From Elsinoe ampelina (Eukaryota), in assembly GCA_010093995.1 (NCBI GenBank), contig ML992504.1:558001-622000 (forward strand): DNA of 64,000 nt, read 5' to 3'. Both the position numbers and the translations under genes were made by a program. This document shows, piece after piece, positions 1 to 63,882 of this stretch. Numbering within the stretch: the stretch's first letter is position 1; each line of letters opens with the position of its first letter. The notes beneath the pieces are model-generated. The model saw only the letters and a list, made by a program, of their open reading frames with translations, was not told the origin of the DNA and did not search any database.

Positions 1-727
1 CGCCAGCGAAGAGCGGCGTTACTTCAAAGGCGTGCAAGGCACCGAAGACCGCGGGGAGATCTTCGGGCTGAAGAACATGTTCAGCTACAAAGACGGCGTG
101 GTCCTCCAGGAAATCGTCAACAAGACCAACGTCGCGGAGAGCAAAGCCAGCGCCGCGAAAGTCGTTGATCTCGGCACCAGCCAGGCCGATGACCCTGCCC
201 CTGACGAAGACGATTGGTTCCGCGACGTAGCCGACAGGCAGGACGCGGCCATCAGCCAGGTAGCAGCCATGGTCGTCGGCGACTCCAAGACCAAGCGGGA
301 CCGCGGGACCAAGAAGACGGACGCCGTGGCTGCTATCCTCGCGGGTGCAGGCGTGGAGTACACCCATGAGAACAGCGAAGTGATCGGCACGTCGAAGATT
401 GAGGGGGAGTTGTCGCGGGCTGCGGAAGCGGCGGGCGGGTTGGGGGATGAGCATGTGTTTGTGCGGAGCCAGGAGGGGGGAAAGGGCCGGGGTGGAGGGG
501 AGGACGAGGATGAGGGGGAGGGGGAGGGCGAGCTGGATAGGATCCGGTATCGCTTTCGCCCGCCGGAGGAGGTGAGGAGGAGGCAGTTTGTGAGTATGGC
601 CAAGGCGGCGGGGTATGAGGATGCTACAAGGTTCGCGTTGGTGGTGGAGGGATGGACGCAGGCGGGGAGGAGGGAGTTTTTGGATAGGTGGTATAAGGGG
701 AGGAGGAGGGCGTTGAGAGGTCGGTGA
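1..727 (+). CDS. C-terminal part of a SNF2-family helicase, Rad26/ERCC6L2-like (5' end lies outside the window)
   Basis: The frame is open from base 2 (ASEERRYFKGVQG...GEIFGLKNMF). It contains YTHENSEVIGTSKIE, the VIGSSK helicase-associated motif. Stop TGA at 725-727. Confidence 0.8.
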   Translation, partial: ASEERRYFKGVQGTEDRGEIFGLKNMFSYKDGVVLQEIVNKTNVAESKASAAKVVDLGTSQADDPAPDEDDWFRDVADRQDAAISQVAAMVVGDSKTKRDRGTKKTDAVAAILAGAGVEYTHENSEVIGTSKIEGELSRAAEAAGGLGDEHVFVRSQEGGKGRGGGEDEDEGEGEGELDRIRYRFRPPEEVRRRQFVSMAKAAGYEDATRFALVVEGWTQAGRREFLDRWYKGRRRALRGR

Positions 728-869
728 AGGGGGATTCTGCTTTCGGCGTATTGGACTGTCAGGGCTTTGGCATGATACCCCGCTGTATTGACACGGCAAA
801 TCACATCATGTACACTTGGGCAACGGCGTCCGGGTATCTATTCTTTTCATGCGATCCTCTCCAACGGAT

Positions 870-2515
870 CTAGTCTTTGTCTAGCCTCACAGCCGCATTC
901 CCCTCTATGAACCCCAAATCGACCTTGTGCCCCAACAAATCCCTAATATTGCTCAACTTGTATTTAATCATCGTCGGCCTCTCCAACGACAACCCAAACC
1001 CGTACACCCTCAAATCCTCGGGCAAGCCCATCGCCTCCAACATCTCCGGCCTGAACATCCCACTGTTCCCTATCTCAACCCACTTCCCCAGTCCCTGATG
1101 GTACCCGAAAACCTCCATACTCGGCTCAGTATAGGGGTTGTAAGCCGGCTTGAAGCGCAGATTCGTGATGCCCAGCTTCCCGAAAAATCCCTCCAGGAAA
1201 GCCATCAACCCCCCGAGAGTGAGATTGTAATCCGCGATCACGCCTTCGATCTGGTGGAACTCGGCGAGATGCGTCGCGTCGACGGATTCGTTGCGGAAGA
1301 CGCGGTCGATGCTGAAGTACCGGCAGGGACGCGGGTCGCGGGCGAGGCGGTGCAGGCAGTAGGTCGACACGGCGGTGGTGTGGGTGCGGAGGACCAGGCG
1401 GGCGGCTTCGGCCGGGTTCCACGGGTAGCGGTAGCCGATGGAGCCGTATTTGCCGGTTTCGTGGACGGCGCGGACGTTGGCGAAGTAGGTCTCGTAGGGG
1501 GTGGGGTGCGGGGTGTCCGTGGGGGCGAGGGACTCCATGGCGTCGAGGGCGGCGTCGGCTTCGGGGTCGGCACGCGGGGGGTCGGCGAGGGGTGGGTCCG
1601 AGACGTAGAAGGTGTCTTGCATGTCGCGGGCGGGGTGTTGTTGGGGGACGAAGAGGGCGTCGAAGTTCCAGAAGCCGGAATCGACGAACCTGGNNNNNNN
1701 NNNNNNNNNNNNNNNNNNNNNNNNNNNNNNNNNNNNNNNNNNNNNNNNNNNNNGGGCATTTCTATGAAGCCTTGGTGGAAGAATATCTTACGGAACTCTT
1801 CCCGGACCTTGTTCAAGGGATGCAGAGCGCCCGCTTGTTGAGGTGCGCCGAGTGATTTGAAGTTGTATGGTTTCCAGTTTGCGGTTTGCCATGAGCCATT
1901 CTCGAGCATGTCTGGTGTGAGATCTGTGACCTCGACCTGTATCTCCTTGGCATACTTTGGGCCCTTCTTGACAATGTAATGGATGACCTTGGCTGTCGTG
2001 ACCAGCTTCCGCTTCTTGTAGTCTGCGAGTACCTTTGCGTCTGCAATGCTGGCCGAGTCTTGAGCTCCTTGAAGCACTTTCCGTGTAGAATCCTCAGGCG
2101 CATCCACAAGAGGTACGAGGGAGTCGCCATCTTTCTTGATCCATTTGACTCTGAAAGCATTGCCTTGACCCACTTTGGCTGATTCTGCGCCTACTGCGGC
2201 GGTAAGATCCTTCACTGGCATCTTTCCGGCTTTCTTGACAGCATCCCAGACCTTATACTCGTGACTTCCCTCATCGCATATCTTCTGCCCTTCTGGTGTG
2301 AGGACGACCTGCTCTTTGTCCTGCGTCTCATACACCAACATTGATCTCGAGGCGAGCCTATCAAGAGCGGCCTTGATCTCTCCTTGTGACACATCTGGGA
2401 AATCGGTATTGGTTTGGAGAGGTTCCTTTTCGTCCAGCTTGTCCAGAAGTTGCTGTGTGAGATCGCGACCATTCTGCTCCAGTGGAACGGGCACCGGGCC
2501 TCGTGTCCCCGGCAT
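870..2515 (-). CDS. FRS2: Cytoplasmic phenylalanyl-tRNA synthetase alpha subunit; interrupted by an N gap that probably hides an intron
   Basis: [20 protein letters not shown] precedes the gap. [65 protein letters not shown] and GLSLERPTM follow it. A cag acceptor lies right at the gap edge. Confidence 0.95.
1694..1753. other. Assembly gap (60 N)
   Basis: Run of n in the sequence. Confidence 0.99.
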
Positions 2516-61632: not shown

Positions 61633-62252
61633 CGTGATCGGCCCGGATGAAAACACGCTCGGCCTATTTGTTTGTGCCAAAGCACGCCTCGGCCTGCAAC
61701 GTTATCAGCAATATATGTTCCGGTGAAGTGGTTGGCGCTAGTCAGTCCCTGCGTCTGCCAAGCTTGCCGGAACCAACAAGATCATCAATTCACGACACCG
61801 ACTTCTTCGCCTCCGTGCTTTCAACCGTATCGATAGCTAGCTTTCACGCCGTCTAGACCGAGCCGTCATGTAAAACCCTCCTCATTACATCGGAACTTGG
61901 CAATATTGCTTCGCCGCATCTTTTCTGTCCCACATTGGCAAAACGCATCAGGCAGGTATCTACCTCGCTTGCTTCAAGCGAGGATTGTCTCTCACCACAA
62001 TATGGATTACCCTCTTCTGCATCTCTTGGTACCGATGATATTGCTAGATGAGGGCCGTGCCTCCACCGATCTCGAATTATACGCTGCACAACTTTCCGAT
62101 TGCCTGCAGGGATCGTACAAGATCTGCTATTTCGGAAATCGGCCAGCACACAAAGGTAGTAGGGCATTATTAACTACGAATTTATACCACATGGACCGCC
62201 GCATTCTCTTCGCTGTCATCCACCCCTTTGCTCTGCCTCAACTTTCAACACC

Positions 62253-63882
62253 ATGAAGACCGCAATCCTCTCTGCCTTTATTGGGGCTGCCCTGTGTACT
62301 CCGCAGGGTCCCGACTACAGCCGTATGACATCTTCTGGACGTGCGAAAGCGACCTGTGAGATTCTACGGTTCACGAACAGAGCCGCCACATCGTTTCCCA
62401 ACGAGACTGCTTATGATCTGGACAATAATGGTAATTACAGTTGCCAATTGTGGACGCAACCCTTACTCACTGCCGCCAGACTACTACTCGATGGCATCCT
62501 CATTAGGACCAGCCTGCGTATATGCACCGAGCAGTAACAGAGATCTTAGTGCTGCCGTGCTACTGCTTCGTGCTACTAGAGCGCCTTTCGCTGTTCGCAG
62601 TGGCGGTCACATGCCCGTAGAGGGGGCCAACGGTATCGGCTCGGATGGTGTACTCTTGTCAATGACAAACTTCACCCAGCTATCTCTCAGCCAAGACAAG
62701 ACATCCGTGAGAATTGGAGCCTCGACGATTTGGAATCAGGTGTACAAATTGCTTGAGCCAGAGGGACTCGTGGTAGTAGGTGGTCGTATTGGTCTACCAG
62801 GCGTTCCCGGTCTGGTACTTGGAGGCGGCATCAGCTTTCTGGGTCAGCAGTACGGATGGGCGGCTAACAACGTCCTGAGCTTCACCGTGAGTAATGCCAC
62901 CTCGATACACTTCTCCTACTGATGCATGCAGTGCGTATTGTCTGATGGTCGGATCGTGGCAGCATCAGCCCGGCAGAACCCCGACCTCTTCTGGGCTCTT
63001 AAGGGGGGCGGTAACTCTTTCGCCCTTGTCACCGAGCTCGAACTGAGAACCTACCCTTCAGCAACGGTCTCCGTCGGTCAAGTCGAGTATGGTACCGGTC
63101 CCGACGTTCGATCGAAGTGGATCAGCGCCATCGTCCACTTCGCCCACAACGGGCCCTCTGACCCTCGCGCCGCCATCATCCCCAACTCCGGCCGCAACCC
63201 CCGCCAACCAGTGGAAGACTACGCCGCCTTCCGCTTCCTCAACGGCGCCGATCCCGCCCCTAAGATCCTCGAGAACTTCACCGCCCCATTCCTTCCCAGC
63301 GTGACAAACGACACCTACCGCGCCCGCTCCCTCTACAACTGGACCCTCGAGATCGACCCTCAACTCGACGCAGGCCTCGCCGGTTTCCGAAACCGCTATA
63401 CCGGCCTTAGCATCCCAGCCGACGAGCGTGCATTAGACATCACACTCCAGACCTTTTTCCAGGTGCTGGATGAAAGCCCCATTCCCAGCTTCCCGTACTA
63501 CATCGCCAGCATCATCCCCATGCCCATGACGAAAGCTTACTTCCAAGCCGCGGTCGACCGGGGTGGGGATCCAATGGGCTTGACGCCCGACGATGCTCCG
63601 TTTCTCTGGGTGGAGATGAGCGAGACGTACACTCTCCCCGAGCAAGATGCGATTGTGACCAAATTTGTGAAGGATGTGGATGCGAGGATCAGGGGGGCGT
63701 TGAAGGAGGCTGGGTTCAAGGAGAACAAGTATGTGTATCTGAACTCGGCGGATAAGTGGCAGGATGTGTTCGGGGGCTATAAGAGGGAGAATGTGGATAG
63801 ATTGAGGAGGATAAGGAGGAGGTATGATCCGGAGGGGCTGTTTACTACGCAGATGAGGGGTGGGTTCAAGGTTGGGCTCTGA
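62253..63882 (+). CDS. Secreted FAD-linked oxidoreductase (FAD_binding_4 / BBE-like); 3 exons
   Basis: Signal peptide MKTAILSAFIGAALC; PACVYAP, FAVRSGGH (covalent-FAD His), GVPGLVLGGG, DLFWALKGGGNSF and YLN...YDPEG. Introns 62431-62479 and 62887-62931. Confidence 0.9.

Follow-up and report, generated by a model that had tools for sequence, protein, structure and literature searches.

What causes GC skew within fungal genes is a question that has been standing since 2011. It is raised in an extreme form by the window analyzed here, a 64-kb stretch of the Elsinoe ampelina genome (contig ML992504.1, positions 558,001 to 622,000; protein match to this species 100%), where the fourfold-degenerate sites of one gene change from being 68% C to being 57% G. 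So strong a signal could make mutation bias, biased conversion and selection testable against one another. The skewed blocks also distort codon-usage and selection statistics, G4-like motifs arise in them as a by-product of composition, and both assembly gaps of the window coincide with them. A preliminary description of the window reported that about half of the genes switch abruptly from a C-rich to a G-rich sense strand in their 3′ part. Is this switch real, what is it anchored to, and which process could have produced it?

Detection of the Skew Flips

All counts come from a single sample, i.e., one 64-kb window with 25 genes and stop codons, several of these stops (those of the OSBP gene, the "secreted" ORF and the DUF7611-7614 gene) being ORF-based only. 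With 250-nt arms, the window contains 12 C-to-G flips of GC skew with an amplitude of at least 0.6, located at 1215, 8782, 14407, 15459, 20453, 21486, 22031, 22769, 36444, 48097, 57711 and 63560. An amplitude of at least 0.8 is reached by 7 flips, with a maximum of 1.19. None of 100 mononucleotide shuffles yielded any flip of at least 0.8, and the largest amplitude among them was 0.53. The C-to-G switch near gene ends is confirmed as real. Of the 14 flip points proposed in the preliminary description, 11 have a counterpart no more than 45 nt away; three, placed at 340, 5950 and 50820, are present in weaker form, as cumulative-skew minima at 201, 5885 and 50822 that fall below the 0.6 list. The flip at 22031 is a site absent from that description, and segmentation of the window returned weak additional flips at 18166, 38223, 43261 and 58645.

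Averaged over 17 flips, the GC-skew profile takes values of −0.3 to −0.4 before the flip and +0.2 to +0.6 after it, and the module extends for ~400 nt on each side of a sharp point. Over all sites of the window, AT skew shows no flip alongside GC skew. A motif shared by the flips was sought and not found.

Anchoring to Gene 3′ Ends

Randomness of flip positions with respect to gene ends was a check set beforehand, and the positions proved non-random: all 7 flips of at least 0.8 (P = 2e-5) and 11 of the 12 flips of at least 0.6 (P = 4e-7) lie 50–600 nt upstream of one of the 25 stop codons, a zone that makes up 21.5% of the window. Counted by gene, a flip of at least 0.8 is found in 8 of 25 genes versus 9% of 2000 random anchors, and a flip of at least 0.6 in 11 of 25 versus 14%, in agreement with the earlier estimate of about half the genes. 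The genes noted earlier as lacking an evident flip (AsnB, RIB7, Ssu72, DUF3405 and MutY) indeed have low amplitudes, between 0.17 and 0.39. The strengths of the C block and the G block are coupled across the 25 genes (Spearman −0.48, P = 0.015). G blocks span stop codons, relative to which their position is given, and their end varies from ~200 nt before the ORF stop to ~300 nt after it. The 3′-end anchoring of the module holds even in 4-kb genes, and Pfam domains and reading frames continue intact through the skewed blocks. The switch had also been called independent of strand. The pattern does occur on both strands, but this is automatic and hence no finding, because the reverse complement of a C-rich block followed by a G-rich block is again a C-rich block followed by a G-rich block.

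Map of the Modules

At the left end of the window, a helicase C-terminal fragment on the + strand (201–770, stop 724) retains its G block, the C block being lost beyond the window start. The PheRS-alpha gene (FRS2) follows on the − strand (771–1928); its sense strand is C-rich from 1928 down to 1215, flips at 1214 and is G-rich from 1214 down to 771, with the ORF stop at 873. Its fourfold sites count C60/G16 before the flip and G27/C6 after it. The N gap at 1694–1753 lies inside this module, and the second N gap, at 20570–20616, lies inside the G block of an alpha/beta-hydrolase gene on the + strand (19019–20719; C block 19019–20392, flip 20392, G block 20393–20719, stop 20559), so that both gaps fall in skewed tracts, as previously described. 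A weaker module occupies an 830-aa ORF on the + strand (4734–6516), with a weak C block, a flip at ~5885 of amplitude 0.47, a G block at 5886–6516 and a stop at 6250. In the OSBP-like gene (8394–9220, + strand), the C block covers 8394–8781, the flip lies at 8781/8782 and the G block reaches ~9220, past the ORF stop at 8920. UTP7 (13533–14943, + strand, stop 14666) has its C block at 13533–14402, its flip at 14402 and its G block at 14403–14943, strongest to ~14730. Convergent with it is an SH3 (NBP2-like) gene on the − strand (14944–16000), which flips at 15494 and whose sense strand is G-rich from 15494 down to 14944 (stop 15210).

RPL23 (20720–21772, − strand) is C-rich on the sense strand from 21772 down to 21483, including intron 1, flips at 21482 and is G-rich from 21482 down to 20720, including intron 2, with a stop at ~20984. 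The neighboring DUF7165 WD gene (22300–23341, − strand) is C-rich from 23341 down to 22746, flips at 22745 and stays G-rich beyond the stop at 22523. The DUF7611-7614 gene (34962–36778, + strand) carries a C block at 34962–36433, a flip at 36433 and a G block at 36434–36778, followed by a terminal intron at ~36790. The MFS gene (47600–49580, − strand) has a C-rich body on the sense strand from 49580 down to 48097, a flip at 48096 and a G block extending beyond the stop at 48003; the frameshift attributed to it earlier is a canonical GT...AG intron of ~52 nt. Next to it, a 532-aa ORF on the + strand (49581–51560), named TED1 in the preliminary description and without a match in a Pfam search, is C-rich over 49581–50822, undergoes a weaker flip at 50822 and is G-rich to its stop at 51560. 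The two remaining modules are also on the + strand: a small ORF in a putative frame, formerly labeled a secreted protein (57301–58140; C block 57301–57710, flip 57710, G block to 58140), and a FAD/BBE oxidase gene (62054–63876), C-rich to 63549, where it flips, and G-rich to the stop at 63879.

Site Classes Carrying the Bias

Fourfold-degenerate sites were counted in 9 ORFs with strong flips, over the 400 nt preceding the flip and at most 400 nt following it. Against a background of A393 C372 G308 T274, the counts are C440 G91 A69 T47 before the flip (C 68%, G 14%) and G180 C60 T46 A31 after it (G 57%, C 19%). The reversal of G versus C across the flip is very strong (Fisher P = 1.5e-54), and a weak reversal of A versus T accompanies it, with A exceeding T before and T exceeding A after (P = 0.012); third codon positions are rich in C and A ahead of the flip and in G and T beyond it. 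The G+C fraction at fourfold sites rises from a background of 0.50 to 0.82 before the flip and 0.76 after it. The two halves are mirror-image compositions, both GC-enriched, in which neutral sites move toward C and then toward G. Twofold sites shift as well: G-ending K/E/Q codons go from 0.60 in the background to 0.29 in the C block and 0.78 in the G block, and C-ending pyrimidine codons from 0.58 to 0.88 and 0.44, respectively. Such shifts indicate base avoidance, not optimal-codon use.

The skew extends to introns and past the stop, as the preliminary description had also observed. Intron 1 of RPL23 contains C 0.47 and G 0.12, intron 2 contains G 0.36 and C 0.21, and the 300 nt following the OSBP ORF stop contain G 0.50 and C 0.10. 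The bias acts on DNA or on the primary transcript, not on codons or spliced mRNA. Upstream of genes, skew averages −0.25 over the 100 nt that precede the first ATG (13 ORFs, a small sample with approximate starts); just before the 3′ flips it is stronger, at −0.3 to −0.7.

Amino-Acid Replacements and UTP7 Relatives

Amino-acid choice follows the blocks, as had been noted, and replacements head for P/S/T/L in C blocks and for R/G/V in G blocks. When polarized amino-acid changes are scored at codon positions 1–2, the C block of UTP7 shows a net change of G −17.5 and C +10.5, that of the DUF7611-7614 gene G −9 and C +7.7, and G blocks show A −3/G +3 and A −4.5/G +2; polarized changes upstream of the blocks have no consistent direction. 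The UTP7 changes are common to E. ampelina and E. batatas and are not found in E. fawcettii. At the sequence level, these results indicate that the bias drove amino-acid replacements in the E. ampelina/E. batatas lineage. Conserved residues are overridden by the bias, and so are optimal codons in the ribosomal-protein gene RPL23.

The survey of UTP7 covered 39 intron-free orthologues of other fungi, taken from metagenome contigs. Terminal fourfold skew is at least +0.36 in 16 of them, and 5 have a flip amplitude of at least 1.0, the UTP7 of the window having 1.24. In distant fungi with different neighboring genes, the UTP7 flip occurs at about the same codon.

Proposed Origin of the Modules

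It appears probable that the modules are fungal genic GC skew of unusual strength and with sharp boundaries, with a transcription-linked, strand-asymmetric substitution bias behind it. Such a bias is the most likely candidate cause. A 3′-anchored module of ~0.8 kb comprises ~400 nt, in some cases more, in which the sense strand is C-rich and G-poor and then, after a switch within a few tens of bases, 300–600 nt of G-rich, C-poor sense strand crossing the stop codon. The cause would be a mutation or repair bias tied to the late elongation/termination phase of Pol II, one process acting on opposite strands on either side of the switch. Sense R-loops probably form readily in the G block and antisense R-loops in the C block, and both could reinforce the bias. 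An asymmetric mutation footprint had been among the earlier proposals; it is the best reading, but its anchor is the 3′ ends of genes rather than replication origins.

In yeast, transcription-associated mutagenesis as described by Kim and Jinks-Robertson reportedly involves abasic sites on the non-transcribed strand, with Rev1/Pol zeta inserting C. Changes of A, T and C to G on the exposed strand would fit the GC enrichment as well as the shift of all other bases to G in the G block, but the G-rich template strand of the C block is not accounted for by this process itself. Two simpler candidates fall short: C-to-T deamination of the non-transcribed strand is incompatible with a GC3 of ~0.8, and simple sense transcription leaves the G-rich template strand of the C block unexplained. 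There is a fairly small chance that each module was left by a single process, bidirectional, strand-asymmetric and of the W-to-S type, running ~400 nt both ways from a point 100–550 nt upstream of the stop; the average pattern published for fungi would then be a blurred image of such modules. Candidates for this process would be self-reinforcing sense and antisense R-loops, the displaced strand drifting to G, or breakage and repair at the 3′ ends of genes.

Alternative Explanations

The modules could instead be selected elements, a reading with a limited but appreciable chance of being right: the G-rich 3′ sense strand would promote co-transcriptional R-loops or pausing, making termination efficient in a compact genome, and the preceding C-rich run would keep the nascent RNA unstructured or set elongation speed. 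About 2000 human genes combine terminal GC skew with R-loops and are enriched at close neighbors (Ginno et al., 2013, PMC3787257). Genes are densely packed in the window, convergent ones having stops 17–612 nt apart, and introns are skewed, as a nascent-RNA signal would predict. A strong flip is present in 9 of 16 convergent-pair genes versus 1 of 6 tandem genes, but this trend is non-significant (Fisher P = 0.16). Moreover, the flips have no common motif, conserved residues give way to the bias, and selection on each site would have to be implausibly strong to keep hundreds of fourfold sites in every such gene at ~70% C. Neither G-runs (180 observed, 182 shuffled) nor G-quadruplex motifs (9 versus 7.9) exceed what base composition gives in the shuffle comparison; termination assisted by G-rich RNA or R-loops, as suggested earlier, is possible for the G block. 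The suggestion that the C block pairs with the G block as a fold-back in the mRNA 3′ region could draw on the complementary third positions, but it is extremely unlikely. The MFE of ±200 nt lies within 1.4 SD of shuffles at 8 of 8 flips (z from −1.14 to +1.17 against block-preserving and from −1.31 to +0.77 against whole shuffles, 12 each), and introns are skewed too.

Start sites of recombination or break repair are an improbable source, by which repair synthesis or strand-biased GC-biased gene conversion would proceed ~400 nt both ways and enrich C on whichever strand has its 3′ end toward the break. Consistent with such sites are the symmetry of the module around its sharp point (~400 nt per side), the mirror-image halves coupled in strength and the GC3 raised in both (0.82 and 0.76 versus 0.50). 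In Zymoseptoria, another Dothideomycete, exons contain many of the inferred hotspots (PMC5844332). However, retained 3′ single-strand damage and G/T-mismatch-biased repair would, by our own reasoning, predict the opposite polarity, and the flip of UTP7 at about the same codon in distant fungi despite different neighbors fits a gene-end rule better than mobile hotspots. Replication origins, like those at bacterial or mammalian skew jumps, are very improbable: the negative-to-positive polarity and the weak matching A/T flip at fourfold sites would suit them, but an origin anchor is rejected because blocks are merely ~400 nt long and 7–12 flips occur in 64 kb, 11 of 12 being placed 50–600 nt upstream of stop codons. 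That assembly or sequencing created the blocks artificially, as the two N gaps inside them might suggest, is scarcely credible, given that the UTP7 protein of E. batatas, taken from another genome record, has the same skew-driven replacements, that independent metagenome contigs of other fungi have the same layout, and that frames and Pfam domains are unbroken across the blocks.

Comparison with Known Skew Systems

Skew jumps at replication origins, in bacteria and in mammalian N-domains, are many kb long and tens of kb apart. They share with the Elsinoe flips a C-rich to G-rich polarity on either strand, whereas the Elsinoe blocks measure ~400 nt and are tied to stop codons. As given by Ginno et al. 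(2013, Genome Res 23:1590, PMC3787257), human terminal skew starts near the poly(A) site and decays 1–2 kb downstream. Both systems have a positive, co-oriented skew at the ends of a subset of genes. Human skew is linked to dense gene spacing and has been proposed to act in termination, and the Elsinoe skew starts 90–550 nt upstream of the stop, inside the coding sequence, with an equally strong C block preceding the G block.

The preliminary description found no ordinary annotation feature behind the pattern and left open whether it had been described. It is in fact already described as a general feature of fungal genes, although its shape differs here. McLean and Tirosh (2011, BMC Genomics 12:638, PMC3315797) reported for most fungi, among 64 species that did not include Elsinoe, a C-biased coding strand whose 3′ end has a short stretch of G bias that continues into the UTR. 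The skew affects fourfold sites and amino-acid usage in many genes, not all, and both mutational and adaptive hypotheses were proposed, including CTP limitation of elongation speed (PMC3315797). Elsinoe shares the C-biased upstream part and the G-biased 3′ end, the fourfold bias, the amino-acid shift and a bias beyond the coding region, as in the 300 nt downstream of the OSBP stop. In Elsinoe, however, single genes switch abruptly, with an amplitude of up to 1.2, and C bias peaks right before the switch, whereas the published peak is at the promoter/5′ UTR. The Elsinoe module is 3′-anchored, both of its halves are strongly GC3-enriched, and its AT skew, which does not flip over all sites, flips weakly at fourfold ones, the AT skew of the published pattern being flat and positive.

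Skew Switches at the 3′ Ends of Genes

Along the window, which has a G+C content of 54%, the sliding GC skew jumps repeatedly from strongly negative to strongly positive values. We refer to the sense-strand switch from a C-rich, G-poor block (C block) to a G-rich, C-poor block (G block) as a flip, to the two blocks together as a module, and to the change in GC skew across the flip as its amplitude. With 250-nt arms, 12 C-to-G flips have an amplitude of at least 0.6, including seven of at least 0.8. None of 100 shuffles contained a flip of at least 0.8, and the top amplitude was 0.53 in shuffled sequence against 1.19 in the window. 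Eleven of the 14 flip points listed in the preliminary description are recovered, at most 45 nt off, while the other three are present in weaker form, as minima of the cumulative skew. The statement that the switch is independent of strand carries no information, since the reverse complement of a C block followed by a G block is again C-rich and then G-rich. The informative property of the flips is their location within genes, not their strand.

The orientation of approximately 25 genes was set by Pfam matches. Among the 17 flips examined, both strong and weak, all lie 93–738 nt from the downstream stop of their own ORF. The zone 50–600 nt upstream of the 25 stops, some of which are defined by an ORF only, covers 21.5% of the window, and it contains all seven flips of at least 0.8 (P = 2e-5) and 11 of the 12 of at least 0.6 (P = 4e-7). 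Counted by gene, a flip of at least 0.8 is carried by 8/25 genes compared to 9% of random anchors (P = 0.001), and one of at least 0.6 by 11/25 compared to 14% (P = 0.0003). Averaged over flips, the skew lies at −0.3 to −0.4 for about 400 nt and then at +0.2 to +0.6 for roughly another 400 nt, and the strengths of the C and G halves are coupled across genes (Spearman −0.48, P = 0.015).

In convergent pairs, such as helicase/FRS2, UTP7/NBP2-like and hydrolase/RPL23, each gene has one module and the G blocks join between the stops; strong flips show a trend with convergent versus tandem arrangement that is not significant (P = 0.16). The stops of the helicase fragment (+, 724) and of FRS2, encoding PheRS-alpha (−, 873), have 149 nt between them, with the G blocks joining at about 770–838. 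The stops of the 532-aa ORF (+, 51560) and of the isochorismatase gene (−, 51577) are separated by only 17 nt, so their transcripts must overlap; neither gene has a clean module of its own.

Several local features accompany this analysis. The apparent frameshift in the MFS gene is a canonical short intron of about 52 nt (48792–48843, −; GTACGT...TAG) linking two MFS ORFs. Both N gaps (1694–1753 and 20570–20616) do fall within strongly G-rich blocks of the + strand, and G-rich tracts probably hinder short-read assembly. At about 36790–36976, the annotated E. ampelina protein P0121 departs from the long ORF of the DUF7611-14 gene after "...VVGFEGQE"; hence a terminal intron precedes a short last exon in this gene, whose real stop is not the one closing the ORF at 36976. 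In the OSBP-like gene, a poly-proline-coding (GCC)n run (8764–8781) stops exactly at the flip, and a candidate GT...AG intron (8384–8451) is 68 nt long, a length not divisible by three, but the ORF is open across it. The spacer between the WD gene stop and the RPL23 start (21773–22523, both genes −) has a sense strand rich in G and A and holds an extra flip, at 22031, absent from the preliminary list.

Sites Carrying the Bias

Fourfold sites were counted in nine ORFs with strong flips. The background composition (A 393, C 372, G 308, T 274) gives way to A 69, C 440, G 91, T 47 before the flip and to A 31, C 60, G 180, T 46 after it, so that the two blocks are near mirror images. Fourfold G+C rises from 0.50 to 0.82 before the flip and 0.76 after it, and A/T at these sites flips too (P = 0.012). 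At twofold sites, K/E/Q codons are A-ending before the flip, and F/Y/H/N/D/C codons are T-ending about half the time after it, a pattern of G avoidance followed by C avoidance and not of optimal-codon use. In RPL23, codons switch from C-ending to G-ending mid-exon, intron 1 has C 0.47 and G 0.12, and intron 2 has G 0.36 and C 0.21; G makes up 50% of the 300 nt 3′ of the OSBP stop. The bias therefore acts on DNA or the primary transcript.

Evolution of the Modules in Elsinoe and Other Fungi

The UTP7 protein is 96% identical to that of Elsinoe batatas and 85% to that of E. fawcettii, and an annotated E. ampelina protein matches the DUF7611-7614 protein at 100% identity. These matches place the window in Elsinoe (Dothideomycetes) and most probably in E. 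ampelina. Both proteins were aligned with relatives, and replacements in the window lineage were polarised at codon positions 1–2. In UTP7, the net change is G −17.5 and C +10.5 in the C block and A −3 and G +3 in the G block; the corresponding values for DUF7611-14 are G −9 and C +7.7, then A −4.5 and G +2. Upstream of the blocks, the replacements in these two genes follow no uniform direction. E. batatas shares the UTP7 replacements and E. fawcettii does not, and thus the pressure has been active since these lineages split. Their presence in both the window and E. batatas also speaks against an assembly artefact.

Scanning of metagenome contigs of other fungi yielded 80 UTP7 loci, including 58 near-full-length matches, 39 of which are intron-free and in frame and were used (L007/L009, L018/L019 and L026/L028 being near-duplicate pairs). 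Only fourfold counts are taken as evidence, third-position tracks being partly confounded by G-ending K/E/Q codons. In the segment corresponding to the C block, fourfold skew is negative at 35/39 loci. For the final 88 codons, the skew is at least +0.36 in 16, at most −0.2 in another 16, and intermediate in seven. Flip amplitude is at least 1.0 at 5/39 loci, compared to 1.24 in the window. The C-then-G fourfold layout is found in L012, L032, L036, L037, L050 and L052 despite only 55–66% UTP7 identity, and some of these six match the extremity of the window, e.g., L012 with G23/C0 in the last 88 codons. An NBP2-like gene lies downstream of UTP7 in only 1/39 loci; the recurrence is therefore independent of this neighbour, and synteny with a convergent NBP2 gene does not account for it.

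Possible Causes of the Bias

Of the explanations proposed in the preliminary description, fold-back of the mRNA finds no support, as the sequence at eight flips (±200 nt) has no extra stability relative to 12 shuffles of each kind. Nor do the flips fit the scale or the location expected of replication origins. G-quadruplex motifs and G-runs show no excess over base composition at 11 flips, and no common motif occurs at the flip point among the 14 inspected. The observations are best read as the result of a transcription-linked, strand-asymmetric substitution bias, which would work on opposite strands on either side of the switch. The exposed strand would drift from all bases to G. Insertion of C opposite abasic sites is known in yeast and would fit such a drift, as would self-reinforcing R-loops. 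One rival to this substitution bias is still selection for R-loop-assisted termination, and a weaker one is a break-repair footprint.

Comparison with Published Skew Patterns

Terminal GC skew together with R-loops is described for some 2000 human genes that lie in dense gene neighbourhoods (Ginno et al. 2013, PMC3787257). In the limited literature searched, queries on Elsinoe with GC skew and on GC skew, R-loops and Neurospora returned nothing relevant, and one on GC skew in basidiomycetes gave mitogenomes only. On the main text of McLean & Tirosh 2011 (PMC3315797), whose supplement may contain per-codon-position curves bearing on the comparison, the pattern in the window is the phenomenon of that study, whose authors find that the skew affects amino acids and fourfold sites, that AT skews are flat and that the link to expression is weak, and put forward two hypotheses, one mutational and one adaptive. 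Six details of the module, for which no prior description was found in the limited literature searched, differ from that main-text account. In the window, the module is abrupt and paired; in genes as long as 4 kb it is still fixed to the 3′ end; the C skew peaks directly before the flip and not at the promoter, with a mean of −0.25 upstream of 13 start codons; the blocks are GC3-enriched; A/T flips at neutral sites; and the two halves are coupled across genes, with the Spearman coefficient of −0.48 (P = 0.015).
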